Positions 20,716 to 56,776 of a DNA stretch of 64,000 nucleotides are shown here, piece by piece (the stretch's first letter is position 1; each line of letters opens with the position of its first letter). The translations under genes and the position numbers were made by a program. Under the pieces are notes generated by a model, which was not told the DNA's origin, did not search any database, and was given only the letters and a program-made list of their open reading frames with translations. Location of the stretch: NCBI RefSeq assembly GCF_023055435.1, contig NW_025964359.1, positions 62,001 through 126,000 on the forward strand, in the 5' to 3' direction. This DNA is from Haliotis rufescens. Taxonomy: Eukaryota.

Positions 20716-21957
20716 GTAATTCAGTACCTGACGGACAACTCAAGATTGAGAGTGTCGACAAAGCAGCATTCACAGCTGGATTTAACACGAACCTTTCTAA
20801 TGGCGACCATGATATTGATACAACCCAACCATTTAAGAACCCAGACTTGCGAAAGCTCAAAGATGATTCCATAACATCAAAGCTCGACCTAACAAATTCA
20901 ATCAAGGCGTTTGGAGAGGCAGAAAAACCAGCTAAACACATAAGTGATGAGAAGACAACCAATAACATTTCCTTTCATGATGGTCGTACGTCCTCTCCAA
21001 ATGGCAACCGAGATACGGCCACAGGGAAAGATGCTGATCAAACATCTTCTCCAAATGGTACACAAGATCGGGACACAGAAAAGAAAACTGATCACATGTC
21101 CTCTCCAAAAGGCAAACTAGAGGGGGACACGGGAAAAGAAGCTGATAACAGGTCCTCGGCAACTGACAAACCAGACAGTGACAAGGGAAAAGAAGCTGAT
21201 AACAGGTCCTCGCCCACTGACAAACCAGATAGTGACAAGAGAAAAGAAGCTGATAACAGGTACCCGCCCACTGACAAACCAGATAGTGACAAGAGTAAAG
21301 AAGCCGATAACAGGTCCCCGCCCACTGACAAACCAGATAGTGAAAAGGGAAAAGAATCTGATAACAGGTCCCCGCCCACTGACAAATCAGATAGTGAAAA
21401 GGGAAAAGAAGCTGACAACAGGTCCTCGTCCACTGACAAACCAGATAGTGACACAGGAAAGGAAGCTGATTACAAATTTTCTGCAATCGACAAACTAGAT
21501 AGGGACACGGGAAAGGAAGCTGATAACAGGTCCTCTCCAACTGACAAACCATATGGGGACGCCGGAAAGGGGGCTGATAACACATCCTCCTCAACTGACA
21601 AACTAAATAGGGACACAGGAAATAGAGCTGATCACACATCCTCTCCATCTGATCATCTCAAGCAACACCCAGGAACCAAAGATGATTTCATAAACCACAT
21701 GGGAAGGGTTGCTGATCAGATGACTTCAACAAATGGCAATGTCCAGGAAATACGTGGAAATACACCATCAATCATAAGAGCTAAAGATGAAGAATCGACA
21801 CAGAGAGGAGGTGTGCTATACATTCACGATGAGCCAACACAAGCTATGACTAAAAATAACAAACTAGTTTCGACTTTGAAGCCTGACATCAATGTGTCAT
21901 GCCCCCTGTGGCCACAAGAGGTCTTACGTAAACAGACTACGAGAGTGATGACTAAAG
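20716..21957 (+). CDS. Paralog B exon 2: Asp/Lys/Ser-rich tandem-repeat stalk
   Basis: Lies within open ORF 20583-21968; phase-1 acceptor TTCCAG|G at 20715 and donor AAAG|GTATAA; the end is homologous to paralog A. Confidence 0.75.
20990..21650 (+). repeat. Coding tandem repeat, 54-bp/18-aa unit (ADNRSSPTDKPDSDKGKE)
   Basis: About a dozen imperfect units visible in DNA and translation. Confidence 0.9.
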
Positions 21958-22392
21958 GTATAAACTAATGATTTACAAGAAGCTTAAGAGATTTTGCAGT
22001 TTACATCTGTACGTTCCATTGCAACAGTCAAAGTTGGTTCAAATCCCCTGATATTCAGCCAATAAGGTCACACATATTGATATTTTAAAAGTAATAAACT
22101 AAAAAGAATAATTGCGATTTTGTTGCGAATATCAGTTCTCCTACATACCTTTAGTGAATATCCGAGAGAGAGAAATTCGTAGTGTTGTTGCTTTAAGTGT
22201 TTGACAGGTCACCTTCTGTCTTAGCAATTTCGGCTGACCTGTCCCTCTTTGGGACTAATATGTCTGAGTAGGGTTCACATATCTATTGTGAGTTTGGTAT
22301 TCACATAATTTCTGTTTTTGCATTGATATGATTTCTATTTTCGTATATTGATATAATTTCATATTTATCTTTGGCTGCTCTGTTTATATACG

Positions 22393-30363: not shown

Positions 30364-31562
30364 AATGAATGCTATGAGGCAGAGAGCATATGATATGTGT
30401 ACATGTAAGAACAACAAAAGTAATAAGATAACAAAAGTCGGACACTTAACAAGGGCAGCGAACTGATAATTGGCGCTGATTGGTTATTAGCAATAGACAA
30501 TGGAAGCCAACACTTTACAGTAATTGACGCTGATAGCAATGGACTGTTGGAAGCCAGGATTAAATTATCACTGATTGGTAATTGGCAATGGACAATGGGC
30601 AAACGGGAGGCCGGGGGTAAATAGCACTGGCATGTCATTTTGGCATATTAGAGTGACATGTGATGTGCAATAACCAGTTCATGGTTCAAATATGTAATAC
30701 GCCACGAGTATGTTATAAGCATTAAGTGCACTCCTGGTTATGTTAAAAAGTTCTAACGTGAACTAGTCAGCTCGTACATAGACTCACAAAATGGCTTAGG
30801 ACCCATTTGAACCATCCTCGACTTTCTGTGTATGTCTATATATTCTATTATAATAAATAACATGGACCCATTTGCAACCAAAGCTTCGTTTCTATTTCAC
30901 CTATGTCTAACGTAGCACGGGATTTCTCTCCGTCATGAGTGTAATTTAACTTGACGTCATGTAATTTGAATCTGACTCAAAACGAAGCTGATTTAGCGAA
31001 TGGTCCAGGGTATTTATCACAACAGAATGCAGATATAAAAAACATTTCCAATTGATAATCGATGATGCATTTGCACATGTCCGCATTTATTTTGCTCGTA
31101 TACGTATACTTAAAAACGTAAAAGTAAAATTCTCTTTTATGAAAATATATGCAAGAGCCTCAACACCTTTTCGTCGTATAGTACTATTTCTATACGAGAC
31201 TCGCGTCTTATTATTTCGATCTTTTTATTGACGTGGATGGTCCTGCTGGTGGAATATCCCCTGCGGAGGCGTCAGGTTGCAAAGCAAGTTTAATTTCCTT
31301 GAGCACACGGCAAAACACATGTTGAAGCCAATGAAGAATGAAATTATGAAAACAAATGTAGCTGTTTCACCCTCAGGATTCATACTACATTGACAACAGT
31401 CAAACCAAACCGCCTGAGCAGTTTTTGGAGTGGATGGTTAGTGAAAATGAAAACAAAAGTTTCTCTTCATCAATCAGAGTCCAAGATGGACTTAGTGAAC
31501 GCCATCTTGCACGTAGCAGGAGATATATACTGAGTCAAATTAAAAACTTCACATTTTTAAAA

Positions 31563-31568
31563 GTAATC
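31563..31568 (+). repeat. Left 6-bp target-site duplication GTAATC
   Basis: Identical to 43475-43480. Confidence 0.95.
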
Positions 31569-32113
31569 AGTAGTAACGTACATCGGTAATGGACCACTCA
31601 GATTTCTGGGACCGCTCAGATTTCTGGGACCAAGATGGCGGCACATCCGTTTCCGGTCACGTGACCTGCGCAGTGCATGATGGGTACCTGCGCGCGCATG
31701 CAAGATGGCGTCGCATCCGTTTCCGGTGGCGCGCATGCAAGATGGCGTCGCATCCGTGTCCGGTGGCGCGCGCATGCAAGATGGCGTCGCATCCGTTTCC
31801 GGTGGCGTGCGCATGGAAAGAGGGCGTCGCTTCCGTTTCCGGGGAGGAGGAGGAGGGATAGGGGGAAAACCCGGAGGAGCGCCCGTACGAGGGGGAACAA
31901 GATCGACAGGGTTGTTGTTCTTGTGTTGTTCTAAAAATAGAAATAGACGTGGGGTGGTGGTGGGGGTGGTGAAGGGAGGGAGGGAGGGGAGGGAGGGAGG
32001 GGAGGGGAGGAGGGGTGGGTTCACGGTGTGGTGGGGGTGGGTGGGAGGGTCGTCAAAGCAAAGGAGGAAAAGCTGTCTTTCGGGAAAGATGGGTGGCCCT
32101 GAAAAGGGCCGTT
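31569..32113 (+). repeat. Left terminal inverted repeat (545 bp)
   Basis: Reverse complement of 42921-43474 apart from a few substitutions and ~9 nt of indels in the G-tract. Confidence 0.95.
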
Positions 32114-32115
32114 GG
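32090..32115 (-). terminator. Histone-type 3' stem-loop #1 (CCAAC GGCCCT TTTC AGGGCC ACCCA), followed by GAAAGACAG
   Basis: 6-bp stem, TTTC loop and ACCCA tail; ~110 nt downstream of the zinc-knuckle stop, same strand. Confidence 0.9.
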
Positions 32116-32224
32116 AAAACAAACTGGAAACTGGAAACTGGAAACGGCAGGAACACTGGAACACTGGAAAAACTGCAAACGATGGGAAACGGGTAAAAAC
32201 AGTGGGGGCAGCATGACCCATGCG

Positions 32225-32851
32225 TTAGTCACTTTGTTCAGAGGATCTCACTTCTCCATCCTCTACTTCCATCTCATCCTCGGACGGAAGGTGTCGTCGG
32301 CGCTTTGAAACGTGTTTTCGTGAGGGGGACCTGTTCCGTTTTCTTTTCTCTAGACGAGGTGTGATGCCTACCCGGAGTTGTGTGAGACATTCTTTTAGGT
32401 CGAGGACATCGGAATGCATGTCTTCGATGAGATGAAGCACTTGTGCCACGGGTGTCACGGGTGTCACGGGGGCCACGGGGGTCACGGTTGCCACGGATGC
32501 CACGGGTGTCGACGTGGACGGTGTTGCTAACGTTTTCTTTCGACTGGGTTCTGGACAATCTGCAGCGAAATGACCCAGGGCTCCACAGTTGTAACAGCGG
32601 TCCAGGCGATGGGGAGTCTTCTTTCGACGGGGTTCTGGGCAATCTGCAGCGAAATGACCCAGGGCTTCACAGTTGTAACAGGGGCCCTGGTACTGCTTCT
32701 CCTGCTTCTCCTGCTTCTCTTGACTGTTCAGCTTCGGACAGACATAGTGACGGTGACCTTGAGTGTGGCACTCGGTACATGTCACTTCAGGGCAGTACAG
32801 GTAACTGTGACTGTCGGTCTGGCACATCCTACAACTGTATCGAGCTGACAT
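32225..32851 (-). CDS. Four-CCHC zinc-knuckle protein (208 aa) with basic NLS and C-terminal EDGEV motif
   Basis: Four Cx2Cx4Hx4C motifs; start placed at CCATC-ATG-TCA (32851), downstream of the TATA box at 32901-32910 (alternative ATG 32863). The ORF-track extension to 33208 runs through promoter DNA. Confidence 0.85.
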   Translation of the reverse strand: MSARYSCRMCQTDSHSYLYCPEVTCTECHTQGHRHYVCPKLNSQEKQEKQEKQYQGPCYNCEALGHFAADCPEPRRKKTPHRLDRCYNCGALGHFAADCPEPSRKKTLATPSTSTPVASVATVTPVAPVTPVTPVAQVLHLIEDMHSDVLDLKECLTQLRVGITPRLEKRKRNRSPSRKHVSKRRRHLPSEDEMEVEDGEVRSSEQSD

Positions 32852-32900
32852 GATGGGTTTCATAGAATGCAGTGTGTGTGAGTGGCTTCGCTCTTGTTTT

Positions 32901-33165
32901 GTTTTTATAGGAGAGGCACTGACACCCTGCTTCCTGATTGGTTCCCCAGGCAGCGCCCCCGATTGGTTCGTTCCGGGGCCTGGCCCGCACCTCGGTTTTC
33001 CAAAACGGACCGACCCCTGTGTTTCTTTTCCATAGGAAATGGATTTTACCATGGGAGAGAAAGCACAACCCCGGTTCGGCCAATCAGAGCCCCGCCCGGT
33101 CCGAGCGCCGCTTCTGATTGGTCGACCACCCAGGCTTCGGATTGGTCCGATTTCGATCCGGTTTT
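32901..33165 (-). promoter_or_regulatory. Repeated multi-CCAAT + TATA promoter, copy A
   Basis: Several CCAAT/ATTGG boxes and CTATAAAA; homologous to copies B-D. Confidence 0.8.
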
Positions 33166-33400
33166 TATCGGGGTGTGCATTTCGATCCTGTTTTGTTTTT
33201 TTCTTCATCCTACAGACAACATAACACGACTATGCGTTTTTAACAAAAAATTTAATCCCCCTGATCACATGAACCAACACCACAAAACAAAAGTCACAGG
33301 ATGAGGGGGGACATCCCTGTGATTTTTGTGAACACGAGGGAGGGGTGACCGCGAGGGTAGGAACGTCTGACCACTTTGAAAAAAAAACAAAAAAACGTTG

Positions 33401-33931
33401 TCACTTGGGGTGAACAAGACACTCGACTCTTCGTTTCCGTGCTTCTTGGGACACCAAACGTCTGTATTTTTCGTTCACTTCTCCATCAGGACAAAACACA
33501 CACAAGTATTCGCAGGGGACTTTGGCATGCTTCAGATGTTCTTTCCAGGGTTGGTCTGTGGCTTCCCATTGGCGGAGTGCCACACCGCAGCAATAACAGG
33601 TCACACAGTCCCCTCGTCCTGGATAGAAATAGCCAGCCATGGCCATGTCATAAGGGGTCTGGGTCATCTGTTGAGGCCACGTTTTAAAAGACCTCAGACG
33701 TTCTTGAAATGAATCATAGTGGGGATGAGAAGGTTGACACAAGGTGTAAGAAGGAAAAGGTCTCTCCAGAACGTCACCGAGTCGACACCTGTCGTCCATC
33801 AAGAGTGTGTCGTCCATCAAGAGTGAACGTTTTCTCGCTTCTTGTTCTCTCGCCTTTTCAGACACCCACTCGGAATCGGTGACGACATCTCGGGAGGATG
33901 ACATGGCATTCATAGAACGTCTTTGCTCCAT
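33401..33931 (-). CDS. Single-BIR inhibitor-of-apoptosis-like protein 1 (176 aa)
   Basis: ERLRSFKTWP...AMAGYFY...VTCYCCG..LRQWE..DQPWKEH...PCEYL BIR signature; no RING; upstream duplicated CATAAAAG boxes (~33975, ~34027). Confidence 0.92.
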   Translation of the reverse strand: MEQRRSMNAMSSSRDVVTDSEWVSEKAREQEARKRSLLMDDTLLMDDRCRLGDVLERPFPSYTLCQPSHPHYDSFQERLRSFKTWPQQMTQTPYDMAMAGYFYPGRGDCVTCYCCGVALRQWEATDQPWKEHLKHAKVPCEYLCVFCPDGEVNEKYRRLVSQEARKRRVECLVHPK

Positions 33932-34771
33932 GATGACGGTGACTTCACTGAAAGAAGGTCTGAGGGTTCGCCTGCTTTTATGAAACTCTCCACCCTACAC
34001 CCTTCAACGGAAGGTCATGACTTTAGCTTTTATGAAACTCTCCACCTCCTCCATCTCCTCACGTGACGTCATCCTGTGTTTGGGTTGACGGACACACGGC
34101 ATGATCCATGACATGATCCATGACATGGATATGACATGGCACACGGGGAGGGGTGTGGGGATGGATGCGTCCTGGAATGACTGACACCAGGCAGCTGATC
34201 TTTCAAGCATGGCCTTTCTCTTTTATCTATTTTTATTTTAATGTTACACTTTGGTGTGCACTGACATGACAGAGGCACAGACAGACAGACGGACAAACAA
34301 CATCGACGACATCTCAACTCAACCTCTACCCTCGGTTCGGCACTCTATTGGAGTTGAGATCAATCAAGACACAAAGAGTCAGTTCAATCAATCACTGTTT
34401 AATCATGAAAAAACCAATCACAACCGGATACAATGGAAATACGAAAAGTCATTGGAGGAGGGAGTGCTTTGCATGTCCCTACAACCACCACAACAACAAC
34501 AACAACAATAACGCGACAACGTTTTCCTCTTCCATCTTCAAGCTCTTCCATCTTCAAGTCCCTAAGAGGTGGTCCTCCCTCAAACCTGTGAGAGGCCCAA
34601 CCGTTCAACACGTACAGTCTATGGCCTCCCTGAAACAGACATGACACATCACTTGATCACGGTTGCAGCTGGCGTGTTGACAAAGTTCTTCGAGTGAAGA
34701 GGAGGATCACCATAAGATGTGATCCTCAGATGCGATAGGCATGTCATCATGTGTCACTATGCTGTCATAGG

Positions 34772-35816
34772 TCAACATACTATGAGCTCCAGCTCACAGG
34801 CATGACACATCACTTGCCCGCTGTTGCAACTGATGTATCTTAACATGTTGTTGTGTCGGCAAACACGACATTCGCGTTGTAGGGGAGTGAGTTGAGCTTC
34901 TCCATAAGGATCCAGGTCAACGTTGTCATCATCATCATCGTCGCAAACCATGGGCGTACCTGTGGAGTAGACATGAACCTCTTCCGGGGATGCTGGTGAC
35001 CAAGAAGCCTCGAGCAGGGGAAGCGTGTCCAGATCCATGGAAGGGAGAGTGGCCACCTTGAGCGCTTCATGATCATCGAGGTCACCCGTCGCCATCGTCA
35101 CAGGGGCATTCGGTGAATAGATGGGCTCCCGAGGGGTTTGTTCCCACCACTGTTCTAGCACGGACTGGGCTGAACTGACATCAGGGGTCCTGTCAATCAT
35201 AAGGACAGAGTCCATTTAGGATAGGCATAGGTCATGCATATGAATCACATCAAGAATGACTGAGACAAAGAAGAGCAGGGTACTTACAGTTGTTCTTGAG
35301 GAGAGATCTTCAGAGATAATTTCTTCCGTGATCGTCTTTTTGCAGGCGTTGCAGGTGTGGCAGGTTTCAAAAAGGATGTCCCCCTCGTGTCGATGTCTGT
35401 TGTCGCCGCAGTCGTGGTTGCTGTGGCTGCTGTGGTGGTGGTGGTGGTGGGGACTGGCGCTGTGGGGGTGGGGGTGGGGTGGGGGTGGGGGGTGTTGCCG
35501 TTGCTGTGGGGGTCACCACGGCTGTGGGTTTGCGTGTCTTTTTCTTCTGGATCTTCTTGATCGTCTTCTTCGATGTGCCTTTCTCGGGTTCAGTCAGCTT
35601 CCTCATCTTTGAACGTATCTGGTCGCACATCAGGTTGTCGCCCTTCGCACGTAACTTGGCGTACGCGTCGTCGGTCTTCATCTTTAAACACAGCAAGTCG
35701 TACACTTCACCCCACAGTTCAGCAGTCATGTTACCGTTCCCCTCTCCACTGCTTCCTTGGCCACTCATGTCGCTTCGTGTCTTGTCATTCAACCGTTTCG
35801 ACATGTTGTTCGACAT
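34772..35816 (-). CDS. Predicted two-exon protein (~315 aa): basic/Thr-rich N-part, acidic MVCDDDDDD, C-terminal Cys4 zinc finger; one frameshift
   Basis: Intron 35287-35190 (GTAAGT...GACAG, 98 nt) joins KKLSLKISPQEQL to TPDVSSAQ in frame; one missing base in the G-run at ~35476-35479 links this frame to ORF 35367-35816. Confidence 0.65.
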
Positions 35817-36029
35817 GATGTTGTCCGGATGTTCTGTTCGTTGTTGTTGTTGTTGTTGTTTCTTTCCAAGTCTTCACGGAGGTACGTCAACACTTGATGG
35901 TACTCTCTCCAAACACGCGTTTCTTCCAGATAAAACGCCAACAACCAACACAACGTGAGGAACATCAATCAGAGGGGACGATGTTGTTGCTTGGTCCGTT
36001 CAGTGAAAAGTGATGACCGGAGAGCGTCG

Positions 36030-36265
36030 GTCGTATTAAAAGCCACGGAGGTCCTGCTTTCTGATTGGCCCGTTCCGATGTCTGACTTTCACCTTGGTTT
36101 TCCAAACTGGACCGACCCTTGTGTTTCTTTTCCATAGGGTTAGGCTTGTAGCGTGAGAGAGAAAGCACAACCTCGGTTCGACCAATCAGAGGCCACCCTC
36201 GCCCGAGCGCGGCCTCTGATTGGTCGATCATCCAGGCTTCGGATTGGTCCGATTTCGATCCGTTT
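36030..36265 (-). promoter_or_regulatory. Repeated multi-CCAAT promoter, copy B (more diverged, TTTTAATA box)
   Basis: Homologous to copies A, C and D; upstream of ATG 35816. Confidence 0.75.
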
Positions 36266-36318
36266 TTTTCTGTAGGGATCCATGTCGATTCAGTTTCGAT
36301 CCGCTGTCATGAAAAATT

Positions 36319-39300
36319 TTAGTGAAAGTCGTCTCTGTACCCAAAGGGGAGCGTGTCTACAGGTAGCCCTGTGATGTCGTCGTAGACGAGACGTCGCTTG
36401 TCGTACACGGTACGATAGTCTTTTCGGGTGGGTCGGGTCACGAGTGCGTTTTCGTGCCGAGGGCCTTTTCGAATGATCTGATGAGGGTAATCCAAACTGA
36501 TTTTCTCCTCCTCTTTCCCAGGCCGTTGTCCCAGTATCAGTCCTTTCATGGTGTCAAAGTTGAGATGGCGTTGGTTTCGGTAATTCAAAGTGAACCCTCG
36601 CACTTTGCAGGTCGTGCGCGTTCCATCGGGTCTGGGGTTCATTAACTCGTAGCCATAGTTTTTGGGGCCTCCCGACACAAACGTCTTGATGGTGTTTCCG
36701 TCCAGTTCATCCGTAAACTCACCCAACGAATGACCCAGCTCTGGATTCGCGTCGTGGGGTCGATGAATGTAAATGACGCTGTCCGTGTCAAAGTACAACA
36801 CCCTGTGGTCCACCAGGGCAAGGGTCTCGTACAGCTTGAGACGTGCTTGGGCGGTGACCCAAGCAGCGATGGCGACGTTGAAATGAGAATGAGGGGTTTG
36901 GAATTCTTTCTGCTTGGTATAGGTCACTTCCACCATGTGTTCGTTGACAACGACCACATCCTCGATGGTATTGCGTTCATCCCTCCACAAGGCAAAGTAC
37001 TGTACAGTATCGTTCATATACACGTTCTGACTGTAGTCTACCCGTTGCCCAAACTTGCCCCAGAGCGAATTCAGTTGCATCTTGGCAATCGTGCGACGTC
37101 CTGGATTTTTTTCGATGCGGTCCTTGTCCAACCCAATGCCTTCTTTGTCGTAGATCTCCTGGATGTACGCGTTGTGATCCGTACATCCTTCGGGGTATCC
37201 GCTGGCTTCGAGCTTCTCCTTGAAATGTCGATCGATGTAAGTGTCAAAGAGTCCCACTTGCTGGGTGTCGGGGTCATGCTGTGCAAAGGTGTCAAAATGC
37301 CAAACGTCGTAGATCTGAAGCACCCGGTAGTCATACTTCTTCACGGCTTCCTGGAGTTCTACGGTGGCGTACGTCCCCACCCATGACCTCTCTTCGTCCG
37401 TGTGCTCGCAGGGGGAGTCTGACCGGGTATCGGCACACGTGCGGCACAAAGGACAGAGCAGTTTGCCACCCGATCTGTAAGGCAGTAGCGGATGGTAAAG
37501 TCGTTTCGGGGGTAGGACACGGCATTGGATCAGGCCTTTCAGTTCAAACAACGTGTCCACAGGGGGTTGATGGAGAAGGGTCGGGTGTCCCGTGGGAAAC
37601 GCTCCGGTCTTACAAATGTAGGGATAAAGGGAACAAATATCGATGTACTTGATGGTTTCACCTTCTTGGGCTTCGTAGCATAATCGCGTCGCATTGGTGC
37701 GTCCTCCATAGAAGGCATCGCGAGGGTTGAGCGGCCCGGGGACGTGGATACAGCGGGGTCCCTGCAAGAAAGCATGCAGTGCGGAGTCCTCCCGTTGCAT
37801 TTTCGTAAACTCGTGCTCCCACAGGGTGACGATCCGTTTCACCTCAGGGTGTTGACTCAAGAGACTCAAGCGGTAGTGGGTGTCGGTGTAACGGGCTCCC
37901 AACGACGAGCCCAGGACGGGATGCGGTTCTCCACGTCGGGTCTTGTGACAGACCTGGCACCCATGCCAGAAACAGCCCAGGAATTCGTAGACGGTGCCTG
38001 TCGCTGGATCGTAGCCATCCACGGTGTACCGATGTTGACCCCCTCCACACGTGAACTCTTTTTCACCGCCATTCCTAGCGTGCTGGAGGTGCAGATGGGG
38101 GTGCGTTTCCATCAGATAGTGGAGCCAGTGCATACAGGCCTGGGAATAGTTTCTCTTGGGTTGGTAGCCTTGAGATGGGAGAATGGCGATGGTATTGGGT
38201 TTCAGGTCGTGTTTTCGGAAGGATTTGATGGTGAACGCTGCAGCTGTCATCACTTCCACAAAGGGATCCATGCCCACCGAGTGGATGGCGTTCTGTCGGA
38301 AGTCGGCGCATCCCCGTCTCAAAATGTCCACATCGCTTTGGCAGTAGGTTAAAAGTTCTCCTTGTAAGTCGAACAAGGCTCCTTCTTGCACTTTTTGGGT
38401 ATGCCACTGGAGGAAGGCTGTGCGTTCCGCGGGAGACATGCCATCGGGATCGTACGTGACGGCTGGTGGATAGGGACCTCTGTAGGTTTGGTTGACTCTC
38501 GTATTAAAAAAGTGTGGAAAGTACCCTTTCTTCATTTCTTTCAGCCCAAAGCTCTTGGGAAAGGCTTTCAGGGGGTAAGGGATGAAATTTAAGCTGTCTT
38601 CGAAACATAACCGTCCCAGGGTCATTTGCAAAATTTGTTGGTCATGGCGAATCTTGGTGGGGAGTGTCACCAGGAGGGGGGACAGACCCTTCAGGACTAA
38701 GTGTAAATCATAGGATCGTGCATTATGGGCCATCACATAAATGCGATCCTCCTTCGTGACTGTATGGCAGGAGGTGTTCTTGTTCTTTGGCTTCTTTGTT
38801 TTCTCCACTTCCATGACCTCTTCCCCCTCTTCCCCCTCTTCCATCTCCTCCCCCTCTTCCCCCAACTCCTCCCCCTCCTGCTGGGGTGATGCCTGTCGTT
38901 TGGAAGTGTGCTTTCTTGAGGGGGTGTCATCCCGTTTTCTTTTTTTCCCCAGGTGAGCTGTCGTCCCCTTGCGTGTGCTGCCCTCCTCTTCCTCTGGGTG
39001 GGGCTTCTTCTTGGGTATTTCAGACAACGTGGTCAACCACACACACACATCATGTCGCGTGGTGGGGCCTCGAAACACGATCTCACGGCTGGGACCATAC
39101 CCTTCTTCTCTCCATGGACAGTGTTCGCACAAGTTCTTGCTCACTTCACTGATGCATCGTCCACATCCTAGTTGCACCACGCACAAATTTGGAATGTGTT
39201 CCCCCGTGTCTTGCATGCATTCAAAATCGTAGAAGGCGTATTGAACATGGTCTCGTAGGGGATGTTGTTCCTCTTCCCCCTCCTCCTCCTTCTCCGCTTC

Positions 39301-39795
39301 CTCCCCCTCCTCCCCCTCCTCCCCTTCCTCCTCCTCGTTTTCTTCACGGAGAGGCGTCATGTAACAGCGATGATCTGGGGTCATGGGTTCTCGGCACACA
39401 AAGCAGGGATGTTCTTCATCGAAGCACGCGTGGTGAGCCATGGGGGTCTCCAAGACGCGGACCAACTGAAAACAGTTCGGGCACCTGTGAATCGATTGAC
39501 AGGCGCTGGGTTTTCCCTCTGACGGTGACTGGAGATGCCGGGTGTAACACATTGGATTGGGGAACCAACCTTGACATGTCAAGCAAGGGATCCCGTGCTC
39601 TTCCTGGGGTCCGCAATAACTAGAGTAGAAGCAGCGGTAACAGCGGTATTCCTTGGTGCAGGGATGTTTTTCGGGATGGTCGTAACGTTTGTCACAGCGT
39701 TTGCAGTAATGGTTAGAGCCATAAAAAGCGGGCATGGAAGTGATGATCATGATGGTAGAGATGCAGCACGGTGGCGTGGGGTGGAGTCTCATCAC
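36319..39795 (-). CDS. polB: Protein-primed family B DNA polymerase, main part (Cys-rich region, exonuclease, Vsr-like insertion, polymerase)
   Basis: ExoI FYDFEC, ExoII AHNARSYD, ExoIII YCQSDV, YGGRT, motif A DICSLYP, motif B KMQLNSLWGKF, motif C YFDTDS, GPKNY; VDGYD..VYEFLGCFWHGC insertion. Confidence 0.95.
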   Translation of the reverse strand: MMRLHPTPPCCISTIMIITSMPAFYGSNHYCKRCDKRYDHPEKHPCTKEYRCYRCFYSSYCGPQEEHGIPCLTCQGWFPNPMCYTRHLQSPSEGKPSACQSIHRCPNCFQLVRVLETPMAHHACFDEEHPCFVCREPMTPDHRCYMTPLREENEEEEGEEGEEGEEAEKEEEGEEEQHPLRDHVQYAFYDFECMQDTGEHIPNLCVVQLGCGRCISEVSKNLCEHCPWREEGYGPSREIVFRGPTTRHDVCVWLTTLSEIPKKKPHPEEEEGSTRKGTTAHLGKKRKRDDTPSRKHTSKRQASPQQEGEELGEEGEEMEEGEEGEEVMEVEKTKKPKNKNTSCHTVTKEDRIYVMAHNARSYDLHLVLKGLSPLLVTLPTKIRHDQQILQMTLGRLCFEDSLNFIPYPLKAFPKSFGLKEMKKGYFPHFFNTRVNQTYRGPYPPAVTYDPDGMSPAERTAFLQWHTQKVQEGALFDLQGELLTYCQSDVDILRRGCADFRQNAIHSVGMDPFVEVMTAAAFTIKSFRKHDLKPNTIAILPSQGYQPKRNYSQACMHWLHYLMETHPHLHLQHARNGGEKEFTCGGGQHRYTVDGYDPATGTVYEFLGCFWHGCQVCHKTRRGEPHPVLGSSLGARYTDTHYRLSLLSQHPEVKRIVTLWEHEFTKMQREDSALHAFLQGPRCIHVPGPLNPRDAFYGGRTNATRLCYEAQEGETIKYIDICSLYPYICKTGAFPTGHPTLLHQPPVDTLFELKGLIQCRVLPPKRLYHPLLPYRSGGKLLCPLCRTCADTRSDSPCEHTDEERSWVGTYATVELQEAVKKYDYRVLQIYDVWHFDTFAQHDPDTQQVGLFDTYIDRHFKEKLEASGYPEGCTDHNAYIQEIYDKEGIGLDKDRIEKNPGRRTIAKMQLNSLWGKFGQRVDYSQNVYMNDTVQYFALWRDERNTIEDVVVVNEHMVEVTYTKQKEFQTPHSHFNVAIAAWVTAQARLKLYETLALVDHRVLYFDTDSVIYIHRPHDANPELGHSLGEFTDELDGNTIKTFVSGGPKNYGYELMNPRPDGTRTTCKVRGFTLNYRNQRHLNFDTMKGLILGQRPGKEEEKISLDYPHQIIRKGPRHENALVTRPTRKDYRTVYDKRRLVYDDITGLPVDTLPFGYRDDFH

Positions 39796-40573
39796 ACTTG
39801 TACAACAGTCTCTGACCCACCTCTTGACTGTAGACTTTCAGTTGATAATGCAGACGGGTCAAGGCTCGTCCCACGCGTGCGAGGTCGTCCAGACCCCGAC
39901 AGGGGCCTTCGGGCAGGCCAAGGCTTCGAAACAAGGCCCGTGCCCGTATGCCTTGAACGTCGACGCGATCCGTTCTCGTCAGTCTCTTTCGCTGGGCGGT
40001 CCATGCTGGGGTCAGAGGGTGAGGCTTGTGGGCATAATGCTGTGCCACCACCAGGGCCCGTCCCAAACAGGATTGATCTTCGTTCTTGATCCGTACGATG
40101 CACTTTTTGCGTGTTAAAAAAGCTTCGAGTCCAATCACGTTTTTCAGCCGGGGAGCACCACTGCCCGATCCTACCCTGTCGGGATCTGCGACGTGTACTA
40201 AGGTCACATCCATGGTGGCATCGATGTTCAGGTCTTTGTTGGACTGTTGGACTTTTTCCACGGCTTGCAAAATAGTTAGCCCATGGAGATCTTCAAAACG
40301 TCGAAAGGGTATCCGTATGGGTGTGTTCAAAGCGGGATGATCGATACCTAGACCAATACGATCTCCCTTCTGACCTGATATCTGTTCATAAAAGTCATCG
40401 ATCACCCTGTCAAATAAAGCTGGCAGTTCCATGGGGACGCGTTCCGGTGGTACGGTGTTCAAGTAGTCTGGGTTGAAAGTCAAACAATAGGTATGATTAG
40501 CAGTTCTTAACCGTCTGGAGCGGGTGATATCTTTCCTCTCCAAACGATAGGGCGTACTTTGGTTGCTCGTCAT
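39713..40573 (-). CDS. N-terminal part of pPolB (terminal-protein-like region + OTU-like protease), frameshifted from the main ORF
   Basis: IKNEDQSCLGRALVVA (Cys) and LHLYHHDHHF (His) resemble the vOTU catalytic motifs of Polinton pPolB; overlaps the downstream ORF at the expected junction. Confidence 0.8.
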   Translation of the reverse strand: MTSNQSTPYRLERKDITRSRRLRTANHTYCLTFNPDYLNTVPPERVPMELPALFDRVIDDFYEQISGQKGDRIGLGIDHPALNTPIRIPFRRFEDLHGLTILQAVEKVQQSNKDLNIDATMDVTLVHVADPDRVGSGSGAPRLKNVIGLEAFLTRKKCIVRIKNEDQSCLGRALVVAQHYAHKPHPLTPAWTAQRKRLTRTDRVDVQGIRARALFRSLGLPEGPCRGLDDLARVGRALTRLHYQLKVYSQEVGQRLLYKCDETPPHATVLHLYHHDHHFHARFLWL

Positions 40574-40654
40574 GATAACGATGTGTATCTGATGAACGTC
40601 TGTACTCTAAGAGGTGCTGAACGTCTGAGGGATGGACAACCCTTCCCCAAAACA

Positions 40655-40940
40655 GGATCGAAATCGGACCAATCCGAAGCCTGGATGGCCGACCAATCAG
40701 AAGACAGCACCGACCAATCAGAAGACAGCACCCGAACCGAGTTGTGCTTTCTCTCCCATGGTAAAATCCATTTCCTATGGAAAAGAAACACAAGGGTCGG
40801 GTCGTTTTAGAAAACCGAGGTGCGGACCAGGCCCCGGAACGAACCAATCGGTGCGCTGCGTTTTGGACCAACCAGGAAGCAGTGAGTTTCGATCCGGTTC
40901 TTCCCCTATAAAACAAGCGTGGATTCGAGTGGGTCAGTGT
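40655..40940 (+). promoter_or_regulatory. Repeated multi-CCAAT + TATA + Inr promoter, copy C (between divergent pPolB and BIR2)
   Basis: Four CCAAT boxes, TATAAAA at 40907-40913, TCAGT initiator at 40934-40938. Confidence 0.85.
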
Positions 40941-40962
40941 ATGTTACATAAAATCATCTAGA

Positions 40963-41421
40963 ATGGCTGAAACAAAGAAGAGTGGTACGACGACGACAAC
41001 GCGTGGCGAAGATGCGGTGATGGATAGTGCAGAACCTCGTGAATGCTGGAGTAAGAGTCATGCCGAGGAGGCGGTGTCACTGCTCAGTCAAACACCATCG
41101 CACTATTATCTACGCTTTGAAAGAAGGCTCGCTTCGTTTGAGACGTGGCCCACGCAAATGTATCAGACTGCTGAAGAGATGGCCCATGCGGGCTTTGTCT
41201 ACACTCAGGGTGCCGATGGGGTGTGCTGTTTCCAATGTGGGGTGCGGCTGAGACAATGGGCACCCCACGACGATCCTTGGGCGGCACATCACAAGTGGTC
41301 CCCAGACTGCGACTACCTCAAGCTAACCGGGTTGGTGAAACACCAGAAGAAGCTACAACTGCACTATCTCTGCGAAGAGAAACAGAGGTACACGAATGAC
41401 GTAGCACGGCCGGCTGCCTAG
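40963..41421 (+). CDS. Single-BIR inhibitor-of-apoptosis-like protein 2 (152 aa)
   Basis: RRLASFETWP...MAHAGFVY...CFQC-x16-H-x6-C canonical BIR; no RING. Confidence 0.93.
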   Translation: MAETKKSGTTTTTRGEDAVMDSAEPRECWSKSHAEEAVSLLSQTPSHYYLRFERRLASFETWPTQMYQTAEEMAHAGFVYTQGADGVCCFQCGVRLRQWAPHDDPWAAHHKWSPDCDYLKLTGLVKHQKKLQLHYLCEEKQRYTNDVARPAA

Positions 41422-41534
41422 GTTTCCCGTGTCCTGCGTACCCGTTCAAGTTCCCGTTCAAGTTCCTGTTCAAATGTTTTTCTTTTCTTGGTTGGACCCA
41501 CAAGTGGACAGCAGCAGAAAAGTTTTTCTTCCCC

Positions 41535-41560
41535 AAAACGGCCCTTTTCAGGGCCACCCA
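41535..41560 (+). terminator. Histone-type 3' stem-loop #2 (AAAAC GGCCCT TTTC AGGGCC ACCCA), followed by AAAAGACAA
   Basis: Perfect 16-nt hairpin at 41540-41555, ~118 nt after the BIR2 stop; outside the TIRs. Confidence 0.92.
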
Positions 41561-42235
41561 TCTCACCCAAAAGACAACTTTCTTCCTTTGCTTTGCTAAA
41601 CCCTCTGCCCCTCCAAAACAAAGAACCCACATCCTCCCCCTAGACCTCTTGGAGGCACACGTCTAAAAATACAATACATAGATATAAATAGATATTAATA
41701 GAGTTAGATCCATAGATCCATAGAGACACGTAGTACACCGCGTCAAACATCACGTGTGCATGAACACACGCGTCACAGTACGCCTGTCGACCTACACGAG
41801 TGTCAACACCTCGGTATCCTTAAATAATAATAATAATTTGAAAACACACACGTACAGGGTACGACGTTTGCATGGCAACACACAGTACAACCATGACGTT
41901 CACATCGCGACACGAAGTGCATGACGCGTGCAAACGTCACGCAGGTGTATCGATTTTTCTCTATTCATCTCACTACGACACGACTCGATACACACACACA
42001 CAGGACACCACGTTTTGACTGACCACACGTTATTCTATGCATCAACGTCAACGTCTGTTTGAAGACATACACACACACACACGCACACATGACATTCCGA
42101 TTGGCATGGGAGTGACACCACGTACATCGCGTAGGCATTCCCACGTTCATGTCTACCTATGAAGGTCCACCTTCCTTTAGCATTCAGACGACCGTCTACC
42201 TCAAAAAATATCAAGGCTACCCAAGAAGAAAAAAA

Positions 42236-42520
42236 ACGGATCGAAATCGGACCAATCCGAAGCCTGGATGGTCGACCAATCAGAAGCGGCGCTCGGACCA
42301 GACGGGGCTCTGATTGGTCGAACCGGGGTTGTGCTTTCTCTCCCATGGTAAAATCCATTTCCTCTGGAAAAGAAACACAGGGGTCGGTCCGTTTTGGAAA
42401 ACCGAGGTGCAGGCCAGGCCCCGGAACGAACCAATCGGAGCTGCGGGCTGGCGAACCAACCGGGAGGCAGGGTGTCAGTGTCTCTCCTATAAAACAAGCG
42501 TGGATTCGAGTGGGTCAGTG
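42236..42520 (+). promoter_or_regulatory. Repeated multi-CCAAT + TATA + Inr promoter, copy D
   Basis: Four CCAAT/ATTGG boxes, TATAAAA at 42488-42494, TCAGT at 42515-42519. Confidence 0.85.
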
Positions 42521-42553
42521 TCACTTGTAAAAATTGATTGAAAAGAAAGCATC

Positions 42554-42913
42554 ATGATGAGTATCAACAACAACAGCAACAACAACAACAGCACCAGCAA
42601 CAACTACCCCCTGAAAGAAAACTGGGATTTAGAGATTGCTACAGTGGCACAACCTTTGCCCGGGTGTAAAGAAACATTACCATCACCACCACCACCATGG
42701 TCTCCAGCGTGGCAATGTGCCCGGTGCCATGGGGGCCTGCCCGTCTATGCCCTTGGTACAAGGGTACGGGATGGGACTTTCGAGTGCGTCTACTGTAAGA
42801 CCATCCTCAAGGACACCTACGTGCGTCGGTTAACGCACACCAGTAGGTGTCCTGTGAGGAGACAGATGAAAGTCCACCCGTGCCTTTGTACCATGGGATG
42901 CACAACCATGTGA
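42554..42913 (+). CDS. Small Cys-rich zinc-ribbon-like protein (119 aa), function unknown
   Basis: CARC-x19-CVYC; sits exactly between promoter copy D and stem-loop #3; GCATC-ATG start context. Confidence 0.75.
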   Translation: MMSINNNSNNNNSTSNNYPLKENWDLEIATVAQPLPGCKETLPSPPPPWSPAWQCARCHGGLPVYALGTRVRDGTFECVYCKTILKDTYVRRLTHTSRCPVRRQMKVHPCLCTMGCTTM

Positions 42914-42918
42914 GCATC

Positions 42919-42944
42919 AAAACGGCCCTTTTCAGGGCCACCCA
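42919..42944 (+). terminator. Histone-type 3' stem-loop #3 (AAAAC GGCCCT TTTC AGGGCC ACCCA), followed by GAAAGACAG
   Basis: Hairpin at 42924-42939, 10 nt after the stop at 42913; forms the inner edge of the right TIR. Confidence 0.9.
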
Positions 42945-43474
42945 TCTCTCCCGAAAGACAGCTTTTCCTCCTTTGCTTTGACGAGCCTCCCACCCCCACC
43001 CCCCACCACACCGTGAACCCACCCCTCCTCCCCTCCCCTCCCCCTCCCTCCCTCCCCTCCCTCCCTCCCTTCACCACCCCCACCACCACCCCACGTCTAT
43101 TTCTATTTTTAGAACAACACAAGAACAACAACCCTGTCGATCTTGTTCCCCCTCGTACGGGCGCTTCTCCGGGTTTTCCCCCTATCCCTCCTCCTCCTCC
43201 CCGGAAACGGAAGCGACGCCCTCTTTCCATGCGCACGCCACCGGACACGGATGCGACGCCATCTTGCATGCGCGCGCCACCGGACACGGATGCGACGCCA
43301 TCTTGCATGCGCGCCACCGGAAACGGATGCGACGCCATCTTGCATGCGCGCGCAGGTACCCATCATGCACTGCGCAGGTCACGTGACCGGAAACGGATGT
43401 GCCGCCATCTTGGTCCCAGAAATCTGAGCGGTCCCAGAAATCTGAGTGGTCCATTACCGATGTACGTTACTACT
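42921..43474 (-). repeat. Right terminal inverted repeat (554 bp)
   Basis: Reverse complement of 31569-32113; ends ...TTACTACT. Confidence 0.95.
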
Positions 43475-43480
43475 GTAATC
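43475..43480 (+). repeat. Right 6-bp target-site duplication GTAATC
   Basis: Identical to 31563-31568. Confidence 0.95.
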
Positions 43481-48050: not shown

Positions 48051-48310
48051 TGTTTGTGTGGCTGCTTGTACTAGTCCGGACTGATGCCGATTTATAGTGC
48101 TAGCTCACGGAGATACCATGCCACAGTTTAACATGAATACCCCACTCAGACACAGTATACTGACTCCGAGCTGACCAGTCCTTGTTTTAACCCCTTAATG
48201 CCGAGCGCCAGACAGGGTAACAACAAGTACCATCTTCACGCGGCCGGGGATGGAACCCCGAACCTTCCGCTCTCCGGGCGGACGCTCTACCACTAGGCCA
48301 CGGAGGCGGT
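47945..48310 (-). mobile_element. tRNA-derived SINE with (GTGAG)n tail and internal (GT)n
   Basis: A/B-box-like head at the right; GATATTCTTCTGGT duplicated on both sides. Confidence 0.75.
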
Positions 48311-51992: not shown

Positions 51993-54900
51993 TTACAGTA
52001 ACTCGTGCTTTTCCACCACAGCTCCACATGAACACTGAACAGTTTCTTTATCCATCTGTATCTCTGTTTTCTTTAAGCAAACCAAGCATTGGTGTTTCGT
52101 TAGTTCCTGAACATTATAAGCTTCATTACCATGAAACGAGAACGCAAGGTAAAATTGAACACGTTGTCCAGCAAATCTAGTTCCAACCAAACCAGCTCTA
52201 ATTGGAATGAAAAATACCTTAACTGGCACGGAATTCTGTCCGAGGTCTAGGTCTATGTATCCAGACAACCGGTTGCTGTTGGGGTGAGCAATCGTTCCCT
52301 TGCAGACCAAAAGGCTGTGTGGAGTACTCTGTATGTTCCTTCCTTCAATCTGAGCAGATAAACGGCTTCGGGGTATTAGACGCTTAATGCCAGAGTTGTT
52401 CTTTCCAAGCCATTCCTGGGGATATCTTGGTTTTGAAACAGATTTGATGAATTTGTCCATATCGTCCTTTAGCATTTGGGCTTGAACGAGACTCTCACTA
52501 TTTCCTTTGCACTCTGCTGATCCAAAGCCAACAAGGCTCAACACGACAAAGAGGTAGAATGTTGATGTTGGGCTGTGAAGTGTTTCATACCAGTATCTGA
52601 TCTTGCTGAGAACATCTTGTTCTGAATACGTGCTGGGAAAGTGTGGGTGTCGTATGGCAACAAGCCATTCTTTAAAGTCTGACTCAAGCTGCCTCTTGCT
52701 GAAGTCCCCCATCACTGATGCGTCTTTGAAGTTCTCTTCATAGAGATTGATGAACTCAATTATATCTGCTTCTGGAATATTACTGATCTCAAACACACTG
52801 TGGTGACCTTTTCTGGTGTATTTGAGTTTGTTTGCAGCTATCAGCAGTCTCCTTGATGTCACTGACATATTGTCAAGTCTGTGAATGTCAAACATATTTC
52901 TTTCAAACAGCTGATCGTACCAAAGGACGGCTGAATGAAATGTTTGATCAAGATTTCCAGGGTCAATGAGACTGTAACATTCAAGAATCATATCTTCGAT
53001 ATCAGTAATGCTGTCCATGATAAACTCTGCTACTGGTTCGCCATGACGACCATGTTTGGTTAGGAAGCCTGATACTCCACCGTTAGTGTAGTTTCTGTTG
53101 ACAAAATCACATACTTGCAGGCGAACGCGGATTTCACTGGAATATCCATAACACTCTTCATAACCTGAAGGTGCATTTTGCCTGCAATGTGTAAAATAGC
53201 TACAAGCTGTATCTGCATCTCTCACGAGTTCTTCAATTCGAAGGTTAAATTCTCCTTCAGTTGTCTCAGTTTCTGGTTTGCTACCTTGGCTTCTTCCCGT
53301 GTACTTTCCAACACGACGTTGATATATGGTACCATACATGTGGTATATGTGCATCAATGTCAGCTTCCTCCATTCCTCTGTTACAGAGGTAAGTGGACCA
53401 TCGTTCCATTTCTTGCACAGATCAAGGGCATCTTCAAAACATCTCTCTGCCTTGTCCTCTTCTTCTTGTCGGCAGTGTGCATAGAAACGTCCAAGATGAG
53501 CAAGGAAATTTGGATCATCGGGAAAAGAAGATGATAGTCTCCTAAGAACTTCTAGTCTTCCTGTGAATGGTGAATTCATGTCAATGTCACATATCAGTTG
53601 TGAAAAAAGAGGTCTTTTCTTAATTTGAACTTCATTTTCTCCAACATCTTTGTTATCTCTGTAAATGAATGTCCTCGTAAGAATTTTGATTATATTGTGA
53701 GCTGTCAAAGATGACCTGGTCCTCCTTGAACTAAACATGGAAATAAACTCAAGGCAAAACTCCTTTAGATTGTGTTTAGCCTTCTTGCTTAGGGTTTGAA
53801 GCCTTGTGTCTTGTTTGGTGCTTGACCGATTCAAAACTTGTTCCAAAATTTCCTTTGCAAGGTAGTAATTGCTGATCCGTATGTTCTTTTCCCGACCATC
53901 GGATGCATCTTCAACAACAAACTCCATGATTGGGTATGGAAAGTCATCTATACATACATCAAAGTTTGACTGTTTTCCCAAAAGTCGAGCAAACACTTGA
54001 CATGGCATGGACGTCTGACCATAGAAATATACAAGTGACAGGTAACCGAGGATCTTCTGCCATGACAAAAGGTGCCTTGTGGGGTTTTCCTCCAACCGAA
54101 GATACCCTTTCACATATGTTTCTATTCCTCTGAACTCGTGATGATACACTGCCATACCGAATTCATACATCACATGATGCCTCTTTTTCTGTTGAACATC
54201 TTTGCACATTTTGGATAGTACCTTTTTCCTATTATCTTCTTGACATCTTTCAAGGAATTTGAAAGAAAGGATTTTGGCTTCGTCTTCTGTTACTTCTCCT
54301 CTTAACCAAAATTTGTTGTCTTTTGGACGTTGAAGTGGCTCTTTTATTGCATAAGGATAACGTTTTGCATAGATGACAATGATGCATCCTGATTTCAATT
54401 TCTTCATAATTTGCTTCACACGAGGTTCATCTTCCCCGTCAATCAAAAGAACAACTGGGAGGCCAGAAACATCGTACAGATATTGTATTTTTGCCAAAAC
54501 TTCCTCAATCAATATGCCAGGCCTCTGTTTAAGTTGACAACATGGACATATCTTTCTCAATTCCCACAATATTCGTTGCGCTAGTGTTGTTCCTCCAGCA
54601 CCGGGGGCATGAAATATTGTGACAGTAGCACTTCTAAATTCCTTAATGAGTTTCTGCTCTACATGTTCAATGATATATTTCATGATGTCTCTTTCAACAT
54701 CAACGTGTGTTGTTCCAAAGGCGTATCTGGCACACCAGTGAAGTGACCCCCCCTTGAAGAAACAATCCACTTCTTTTGTCAGTTCTTCAACATCAGCTTC
54801 CCCTTTAGTGTACGGACTGGACAAGTACAGAACCACTAAGTCCTCACGTAGCCAAGCTGCATCTTTGTCTGTTACATCAGCATGCATATGACTTTCTTGC

Positions 54901-56776
54901 TTTGGAAGAGAGTAATCCATTTCTCTTTGTTTCGAAATCTCTTTCAGCATGTTCCCCACAGATAAACAAAGACTTTCCAAATCAATCTTCAGCTGAACTA
55001 AGTTGGTATTGTAGTCAGATTCAAGAAGCTGTAAAACTGACTTTCCAACGCTTGAATTTAGTTCTTGTAATAAGCAAACAATAATCTTTGGTTGAACATG
55101 GAAGTGGTCATTTAACTTGCACAGGAATTTGTAGACGCACTGGGCTTGTATTTCATTATCTGGCCATAGTACAATTAATCTAAGCACTGTATAATCTTCT
55201 GAAAATCTTGCCAGGTTAAGACAAGTGCTGTTCAGATTTCCTTTGACAAGCTGCAACCATCCATTTGGGTTGTGTGAAGTTTGGGTGTCTGGTATTTCAC
55301 AAAGTCCACGAAGACATATCCATTGGGTGCCACTTTCTGTAATACCCTGTGGGGAATCTTTCCATGTCGACACATGTAGGTACCTTTTCCTCTTTATAAC
55401 ATCCTCCAAACATGAAAGCAAACCTGAGTGTCTACTAGACTCCTCAAAGTCGTACACAGCTAGCCATGACACGAGTGCCAAATTATCCACATGTCTTACT
55501 GATTCTGGTAAACTGCCTGTAATCAATACAAAATGTCCCTTTTTGAAGTAATCTACTGCAGAACAAAAATCAGCTGTTGTCACTCCTCTCTTGATTGTTG
55601 CTGAGTATTCTTCATCAGGATACTCAAAATCCCCTTTATCTATTACTTGTCTGGTTGTTTCTGTATTTTCCTCCACAGACATCTGACCAGTTCCACCAAA
55701 CCACTGATAAATCTGGCCTGTCAGAAAATCCTGTGGCAGACTGAGTCGATTATGTCTCCCAGACCTGACCCACAACTGACCTGCTGTAAGAGTCAGCTGG
55801 TTACTATCTGTGAAGTCTTTAGTAACAACTGAAGGCACGCCTTGGCCATAGCTGCTTTGAACATCAATAATACCAATTACTTTGTCTTGGTAAACTACTT
55901 CTTTGTACTTGAAATTAGGCATCATCGAAAAATGATCTTTGTTAAAATAAGCCTGATAAAAATCATCACTTGATCGAACCCGAACTCCTACCACAGAATG
56001 TGGTTTTGTCTGATTCAAGCACACTCCAATCACAACAGATGATGTGTGTCTTGAGGGGGTATTCCATAGAGATACTATATCCTGCATAAAGATTGCTTGT
56101 CCATCCATGTATATTGATTCATCTGGGTAAAACAGAAGTACATCACTTTCATCCTTCCTCAACAAATCTCGAACCATAAACCTCTCTGAATTGTATATTT
56201 CCTCTGTGCCAGAAGATGTTGACTCCTCTTTAGAAATAGATTGAGAAGTTTCTACACTGTGGACTTTCAGAACCGATTTTTTTTCACTGCGTTTTGATTT
56301 TTGTTGCTGCCATGGCTCCGAGTTCAAGTTTTCTTCATCATCGTCATTTTCTGTTGCATATCCAGAAGCTTCACCAAGTTTCTGAACCTCAACTTTCTCT
56401 TCTGTGCACTCATTTCTTGCTTCTTTTAATGGCAAGGTCGATTTCGGATCTGAATGAACACTTGCTGTACATGTCACACTTTTTCTTACTTCCTTTGAGT
56501 CCTCAGATTTCTTCCTGTCTCTCCATTTCAACCTGATTGTTTGTTTTCCTTTTGTAGAGTACATGTCATAATATTCACTATTAGTTTCAATAAACTTTCG
56601 AAGAGGTGCTCCATATGCATCTTTAAATGACTTGACAGTGGAACAATGTCTTCTATATTGCTTTGTGAAACGCTCTTCAACAATTTTCATAGACATCTCT
56701 ATCGCTTTTTCGGAACATGTTGGGTTTATTATGCTATTTACCATACCAACAAACACGTCATTCTTGCTTATTCCTC
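51993..56776 (-). CDS. SAMD9/SAMD9L-like STAND NTPase, main exon (AlbA/Schlafen-like, SIR2-like, P-loop, TPR, OB fold, C-terminal Cys motif)
   Basis: IFHAPGAGGTTLAQRILWELR (SAMD9-type Walker A), PVVLLIDGED (Walker B), WLAVYDFE..S..SGL, NFLAHLGRFY and RVQFYLAFSFHG.EAYNV; acceptor TTTTCAG| at 56777. Confidence 0.9.

Follow-up and report, generated by a model that had tools for sequence, protein, structure and literature searches.

Histone-type mRNA 3'-end cassettes behind non-histone genes of an integrase-less Polinton-derived element in Haliotis rufescens

Why should hairpins of the kind that ends histone mRNAs lie at the inner edges of both TIRs of a mobile element, directly behind genes that do not encode histones? 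The locus that raises this question lies in a 64,000-nucleotide stretch of Haliotis rufescens DNA (contig NW_025964359.1), here called the window; the host genome assembly that we searched comprises 1.33 Gb. An earlier note on the window had read the arrangement as a plug-in design, in which terminal genes could be exchanged in front of a fixed cassette whose processing would also stop transcripts from running into the replication origins. Below we describe the element and its cassettes, their conservation, and the readings that could account for them.

The TIRs bound an 11,906-bp element (positions 31569 to 43474) with AGTAGT...ACTACT ends. Contigs of three other sequencing runs contain the empty site, a joint from 31562 to 43475 that skips 11,912 nt, and the element is flanked by the 6-bp target-site duplication (TSD) GTAATC (left copy 31563 to 31568, right copy 43475 to 43480, both plus strand); among other element pairs four of five have a perfect TSD. 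The left TIR measures 545 bp (31569 to 32113, minus strand) and the right TIR 554 bp (42921 to 43474, plus strand), and the inner edge of each is the AAC that precedes the hairpin stem. Polintons/Mavericks are recognized by TIRs of 100-1500 bp and (AGT)2 or (AG)3 ends, according to the available portions of PMC8097293 and of a nematode Polinton preprint, and the window element has TIRs of this length, AGTAGT ends, a 6-bp TSD and a protein-primed family B polymerase (36319 to 40573, minus strand; Pfam PF03175, E=7.7e-35). In the window the polymerase is broken into two frames near 39.75 kb (ORFs 36319-39792 and 39713-40573); it forms a single long frame in some other copies. Across the family its pN/pS of 0.34 indicates purifying selection. 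The other products, by Pfam, are a protein with a double zinc knuckle and a pair of BIR-only proteins, next to small orphans. Two Maverick integrases used as tblastn queries matched neither the window nor any of 18 family loci, their only matches being in the four control loci, and neither the packaging ATPase, the protease nor the major or minor capsid protein had a convincing tblastn match in the window and those 18 loci, the sole weak ATPase match being 34 aa long (locus L131, E=7e-5). The Polinton definition, as given in the accessible text of PMC5499653, requires an RVE integrase. Because the integrase, ATPase, protease and capsid genes are missing, we regard the element as an integrase-less derivative and not as a full Polinton. 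From the perfect TSDs it follows that integration took place in trans, probably by way of the full Mavericks, with which the window family has only the terminal AGTAGTA in common.

Elsewhere in the window, for a single ORF of 1,583 aa (51993-56744, minus strand), Pfam offered no more than faint hints (Schlafen AlbA_2, E=0.018), exon-like ORFs at 9636-11439 and 20691-21968 are made of 51-54-nt tandem repeats, and a tRNA-like segment at the Rfam cut-off (48245-48300, minus strand) is probably the head of a SINE.

Rfam model RF00032 (Histone3) scores above its gathering score at three sites in the window, 32070-32115 on the minus strand and 41535-41580 and 42919-42964 on the plus strand (35.3-38.2 bits), and the 16-nt hairpin, with a 6-bp stem and a 4-nt loop, is the same at each of them. 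Three matches in the window also came from a degenerate hairpin pattern that allowed one mismatch, a number reached in 0 of 100 shuffles. At the right end, the stem-loop (42924 to 42939, plus strand) is followed by ACCCA, a spacer and an HDE-like box (42940 to 42965, plus strand), with AAAGA 14 nt past the stem and a predicted mature end at about 42944, and then by a U-rich tail (42966 to 42990, plus strand) that is conserved like the cassette and has no role on record. The left cassette has its stem-loop at 32095 to 32110 and its ACCCA, spacer and HDE-like box at 32069 to 32094, both on the minus strand. The third, internal cassette (41535 to 41595, plus strand; stem 41540-41555) equals the right cassette for 30 nt, after which spacer, box and U-rich tail drift apart, just as the earlier note had described for a copy diverged around an unchanged hairpin. 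The predicted fold of the stem-loops agrees with the histone hairpin; folding z-scores of 72-nt pieces (-1.0 to -2.7, compared with -1.4 for host H3) are weak and count as evidence neither way.

All three cassettes are in sense orientation, 3' of the stop codon of an outward-reading ORF, and none of the three genes encodes a histone. The left cassette follows a zinc-knuckle ORF (two zf-CCHC, Pfam PF00098; 32225 to 32863, minus strand; pN/pS 0.54) of approximately 208-212 aa, as counted from the first ATGs past the TATA at 32909. The internal cassette follows a BIR-only ORF of 152 aa (Pfam PF00653; 40963 to 41421, plus strand; pN/pS 0.40). The right cassette follows a Cys-rich orphan ORF of 119 aa (42554 to 42913, plus strand; pN/pS 0.39), for which there was no Pfam match, no homologue of similar length and no atlas match of 0.9. 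The gaps from stop codon to cassette are 114 nt for the zinc knuckle, 118 nt for the BIR gene and 10 nt, measured to the right stem, for the orphan, and pN/pS of the terminal ORFs ranges from 0.39 to 0.60. Upstream of each of the three ORFs there is also a promoter module that recurs in the element and contains a pair of CCAAT boxes 24 nt apart and a TATA box: the module lies at 42228 to 42494 (plus strand) 5' of the orphan and at 32903 to 33169 (minus strand) 5' of the zinc-knuckle ORF, with further copies at 36060-36269 (minus strand) and 40741-40851 (plus strand). A short imperfect palindrome, GGATCGAAATCGGACC, is found at the start of the module at 36261 and 33159 (minus strand). No hairpin was found 3' of the polymerase or of three other ORFs of the element. 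The second BIR-only ORF (176 aa; 33401 to 33931, minus strand) is one without a hairpin and has an ATTAAA at 33251 (minus strand), and the only minus-strand AATAAA of the element, at 34232 with an ATTAAA at 34237 (34232 to 34242), lies 3' of two small ORFs (34772-35215 and 35367-35816). Judged by these motifs, mRNA ends of both kinds, histone-type and ordinary, seem to be present in the element.

In the host, the H1 hairpin is identical to that of the element letter for letter, and the core histones have a GGTCC version. The distance of AAAGA past the stem, 14 nt in the element, is 13-14 nt in host H1, H2A, H3 and H4. The box of the window subfamily, AAAGACAGCTT, differs from the host form AAAGAA(T/A)..CTT in the letters past AAAGA, and that of older subfamilies, AAAGAACGCTT, is near the host form; spacer and box of the window family taken together are unlike those of every host histone gene compared. 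The 24-nt spacing of the CCAAT pair also occurs in the host H3 promoter, a likeness that is suggestive only. The H1 genes of the host lie in a 3-kb tandem array of their own, separate from the 4.1-kb core-histone repeat (C445:49.27-49.67 Mb; C110, C170, C174 and others). A search for host U7 with Rfam RF00066 returned four matches, none above the cut-off, and a pattern combining the complement of the box with an Sm site matched 236 times compared with 242 times in the control; the five candidates inspected had no 3' hairpin.

We next consider whether the cassettes are maintained. An exact pattern of hairpin plus ACCCA, which does not match host H1 or core histones, has 260 matches in the genome and none in the reversed control. 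Thirty loci were picked by BLAST with the TIR, 25 with a cassette at the TIR edge (two being those of the window itself) and five belonging to a long-TIR subfamily. Across the 25 loci, 4 of 1,108 cells of the 45-nt cassette differ (0.36%) compared with 358 of 8,225 cells in the outer TIR (4.4%), approximately 12-fold less, although cells are not independent of one another; the exclusion of CpG alters these rates little. Counted as variant alleles per column, the figures are 4/45 for the cassette and 130/379 for the outer TIR (Fisher p=3e-4). Differences were counted against the majority and not against the window, whose private changes inflated reference-based rates. All 13 right ends retrieved with TIR BLAST have the hairpin unaltered, where the mean pS of 0.20 in the adjacent ORF leads one to expect about three changes per 16 nt, and single comparisons with pS up to 0.475 still show it intact. 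These rates bear out the suggestion of purifying selection on the hairpin, and the comparison of cassette with flank that the earlier note had called for comes out in its favor. The 25 nt past the box equal the cassette in conservation (3 of 611 cells differ), a fact that histone processing does not account for.

The hairpin was also said to be invariant, and this holds for the lineage, as seen in the three identical hairpins of the window, but not for every copy. When cassettes were picked by their flanks, the first 100 of 267 comprised 76 with the exact hairpin, 10 in which all pairs are kept by wobble or double change and 14 with a broken pair, so that 24 are changed; one copy (L123) has a double change in the stem with the pair kept. 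The pattern in these sequences fits selection during copying of the element followed by neutral decay after insertion.

One exchange of a gene body was observed. Of 76 hairpins from the compared stretches, 11 are followed by the TIR and preceded by a sequence that resembles none of the window's three, and 10 of these 11 have an 86-codon ORF or its remnant in that place; locus L030 also carries the 86-codon ORF. This ORF has the promoter, the TATA box and the first dozen codons in common with the zinc-knuckle gene, as well as the 25-30 nt directly before the stem, and it differs in the body. The plug-in design is partly supported, in that one gene body replaces another between the same promoter and cassette in a different subfamily, but the junctions are away from the TIR edge. 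No replacement by another identifiable gene was observed at the right end: copies have the 119-aa ORF or deleted remnants of it, one upstream sequence (L146) apart. The sequence comparison supports a reusable expression unit, with the junctions inside the unit. Several fold-back derivatives (L112-L113, L117-L118 and L159) have TIRs of several kb with the 86-codon ORF, the cassette and tandem repeats on both arms, and the polymerase ORF is absent from the one mapped (L112-L113).

The coincidence of the TIR edge with the hairpin is exact in the window. In an end-to-end alignment the near-identity of the two TIRs extends from the termini to the AAC, confirming that it stops 3 nt 5' of the stem (32113 and 42921), and beyond the edge there is only chance similarity (27% ungapped identity at 11-100 nt upstream of the stem). 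We compared 15 element pairs with both cassettes, a count that leaves out elements with one cassette and tandem or nested ones (L114/115, L125/126, L127/128, L131 and L142). Ten pairs share exactly 3 nt before the stem and two share none, so that the TIR match stops 0-3 nt short of the stem in 12 of the 15; the other three share 207-491 nt before the first mismatch and are fold-back derivatives. As a general design the boundary is not supported, with those three pairs running hundreds of nucleotides past the hairpin and two full Mavericks also departing from it, the cassette lying mid-TIR in one and approximately 130 nt outside the TIR in the other. On these alignments, the coincidence is stable in the window family and is not a rule. 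It is probably a by-product of homogenization between the ends. If both end genes need the cassette, it would be the innermost sequence common to both ends, and copying from end to end through a TIR panhandle during protein-primed replication might homogenize the TIRs and halt where the genes differ. TIR panhandles are described as origins in protein-primed elements in the accessible part of PMC4046053, and the homogenizing effect is our own supposition.

Two other Maverick families of the same genome carry histone-type cassettes. A 16.3-kb Maverick (L069:1737 to L070:7999) has PC4, ATPase, integrase-chromodomain, capsid-like and protease genes and TIRs of about 1.8 kb, each with a BIR gene followed by a palindromic GGTCCT-TATA-AGGACC hairpin and a host-type box; the polymerase of this Maverick has a frame break near its C-terminus. 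In a second family with a full gene set, including integrase, ATPase, protease and capsid-like genes (L066:2392 to L067:8891; L080-L081), the hairpin GGTTCC-TTAY-GGAACC and an H2A-like box lie 36 nt past a BIR gene. This hairpin has 16 matches in the genome, 15 with a perfect stem and 13 directly 3' of a listed BIR match; one copy of the family has other sequence where the cassette would be expected past the BIR gene. Its C-G top pair and UUAY loop depart from the canonical histone hairpin pattern. The AATAAA approximately 50 nt past this hairpin suggests a possible dual 3' end for the BIR gene. Thus three families have three hairpins, and all six pairs are kept in each: stem pairs 3, 4 and 6 change and stay Watson-Crick.

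Hairpin and box also lie behind other non-histone ORFs of the genome. An uninterrupted SET-domain ORF of 300 aa with a TATA box (PF00856; L075:7038-7990 = C135:4802038-4802990) is followed after 14 nt by a hairpin and box of histone type, with no Polinton genes seen in the 30 kb around it, and a lone 75-nt copy of its cassette lies in L250 at about 4180-4250. In addition, tandem units in L256 (2010-2375, 4079-4445 and 6748-7115) contain a 97-aa coiled-coil-like ORF followed after 36 nt by GGCTCT-TTTA-AGGGCC and a host-type box; this ORF is head-to-head with a 106-aa look-alike and matched no family. The SET-domain gene and the coiled-coil tandem gene would be host candidates for histone-type ends if Polintons are a source of such genes.

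Reads placed on the window element consist of contig coverage of the whole element (three contig sets of uncertain kind) and 12 small-RNA reads from one run, material that is unable to show transcript ends. Contig ends near 42946 were set aside as RNA ends since a repeat branch fits them equally. Outside the host, 19 (145,787 nt) of the 36 metagenomic Polinton loci with polymerase relatives, mostly fragments without ends, gave no Rfam match; a relaxed hairpin pattern run over 28 of the 36 loci matched once, to an unrelated hairpin. In viral_contigs, a collection with few end-bearing animal Mavericks, polymerase queries gave no match and two hairpin patterns gave 0 and 1 match, the single match having no downstream box and being taken as chance.

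What, then, do the cassettes do? Histone mRNAs are cut 4-5 nt past the stem. The outward genes of the element are built like replication-dependent histone genes, with a CCAAT/TATA promoter, a short uninterrupted ORF, a stem-loop and a downstream box, and we consider it probable that their cassettes are working histone-type 3'-end signals, with the ends made by host SLBP and U7. Under this explanation, the hairpin would be bound by host SLBP and the box paired with the host U7 snRNP, and the transcript would be cut just past ACCCA, at approximately 42944, 41560 and 32090. The resulting mRNAs, having no poly(A), would follow the histone cycle in their translation and decay, and production of the BIR, zinc-knuckle and orphan proteins would coincide with cellular DNA replication. 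In the accessible text of PMC3884669, a stem-loop and a loosely conserved HDE that flank the cut are what defines histone processing, and the layout of the element suggests a borrowed use of the pathway that handles histone messages in the host.

The position of the terminal cassettes and the exchange of a gene body might also be explained if the main role of a cassette at the TIR edge were to insulate, by cutting transcripts and so keeping RNA polymerase II off the terminal replication origins while cargo is swapped in front of it. This reading is compatible with the use of SLBP and U7 and differs from it on the reason for the boundary; besides the 12 of 15 pairs with a boundary at 0-3 nt and the swap itself, it can draw on the two other families, in both of which the cassette that ends outward BIR genes is at a distance of 460-630 nt from the terminus. 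However, the third cassette is equally conserved at 1.9 kb from the end, TIR edges are away from the hairpin in the remaining pairs and in both other families, and the swap junctions are away from the boundary. Moreover, at the opposite end of the C68 family the polymerase is followed by an AATAAA and by no hairpin, so ordinary signals seem sufficient there, and we think it rather unlikely that insulation is the main role. An inert origin is harder to credit. A histone gene tail might have been acquired once and look conserved because the copies are young or are homogenized between ends or with host histone arrays, and indeed the hairpin equals that of host H1, spacer and box of the third family match host H2A, many copies are 97-99% alike and chromosomal copies decay. 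Yet the same TIRs are about 12-fold more variable outside the cassette, spacer and box of the window family resemble no host gene compared, the three hairpins keep six pairs while two to three pairs change, and the hairpin is intact in old copies (pS 0.3-0.5), all of which makes this account improbable.

The signal might, alternatively, act against expression, with U7 binding or cleavage dampening the genes as self-restraint or as host silencing. There is a precedent in human LTR12, which, according to the available portion of PMC11417402, U7 represses via HDE-like motifs and NF-Y/CCAAT boxes, and the element promoters have several CCAAT boxes. The LTR12 case needs only an HDE-like motif, however, whereas here a full stem-loop and ACCCA occur at the right spacing behind ORFs under purifying selection, a layout that is the one yielding stable mRNA, and we give dampening little credence. 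Finally, the hairpin could act as DNA, folding in the displaced single strand to mark the edge of a panhandle or a recombination site. Its position at the TIR edge and the role of TIR panhandles as origins are in keeping with this, but the hairpin is always in mRNA sense past a stop codon, the box is always at the host spacing, an internal site exists as well and G-U-type variants recur, so that a role as DNA appears very improbable indeed.

Taking histone-type processing by SLBP and U7 as the preferred explanation, we can put forward a wider proposal, though with more doubt than conviction: polintoviruses of this animal group may routinely use host SLBP and U7 for accessory (anti-apoptotic) genes, carried as swappable promoter-body-cassette units coupled to S phase, and may seed the host with intronless non-histone genes that have histone-type ends. 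If true, a virus-like element would be exploiting a pathway held to serve histones only, breaking that exclusivity, and a DNA parasite would have a new means of timing its genes to host DNA synthesis; poly(A)-selected data would also register too few of such mRNAs. The three natural hairpin variants are in addition probes of what invertebrate SLBP and U7 accept. To our knowledge Polinton gene expression has been little studied. The literature within our search contained nothing that links Polintons with histone stem-loops, an earlier remark being possible in subscription papers, supplements or Repbase/Dfam, which lay outside its scope; the word 'histone' is absent from PMC8097293 and from the nematode Polinton preprint. 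In the accessible parts of the respective sources, replication-dependent histone mRNAs stand as the sole non-polyadenylated cellular mRNAs known and HeLa cells yielded no expressed non-histone SLBP target (PMC4604434), and a 2026 preprint on the processing machinery reports that large DNA viruses yielded no SLBP homologues, with no mention of transposons (10.64898/2026.10.14.759114).

Among known systems, the metazoan replication-dependent histone mRNA 3' end (RF00032 and HDE, with SLBP and the U7 snRNP) shares with the element the hairpin, the AAC before it and the ACCCA after it, and replication-dependent histone genes share the purine-rich box 14 nt downstream, the short uninterrupted ORFs and the CCAAT pair; in contrast to them, the element genes are non-histone and mobile and have a deviant box in the window subfamily, and their processing is a prediction. 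The U7-regulated LTR12/HERV elements are likewise mobile and have HDE-like motifs, CCAAT boxes and contact with U7, but there U7 represses transcription and the abstract of PMC11417402 describes no stem-loop or cleavage cassette, whereas the window element has the whole cassette 3' of its ORFs. Polintons/Mavericks with the mollusc-type pPolB2 and its VSR insert resemble the window element in their (AGT)2 ends, 6-bp TSD and TIRs of about 550 bp; the window polymerase is 54% identical to the polymerases of two full Mavericks in the same genome, and its GCFWHGC...WEHEF stretch was read by eye as a VSR-type insert of the kind described in the available text of 10.1101/2023.08.22.554363. Unlike them, the window element is only 11.9 kb long, is without integrase, ATPase, protease and capsid genes and has, among its genes, two for BIR proteins, one for a zinc knuckle and orphans. 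In being small and TIR-bearing with part of the core genes missing, it is similar to transpovirons, Tlr1 and other reduced Polinton relatives as outlined in the accessible text of PMC5499653, but those relatives have a helicase and an inactivated polymerase, whereas the window element, its integrase missing, has kept the polymerase.
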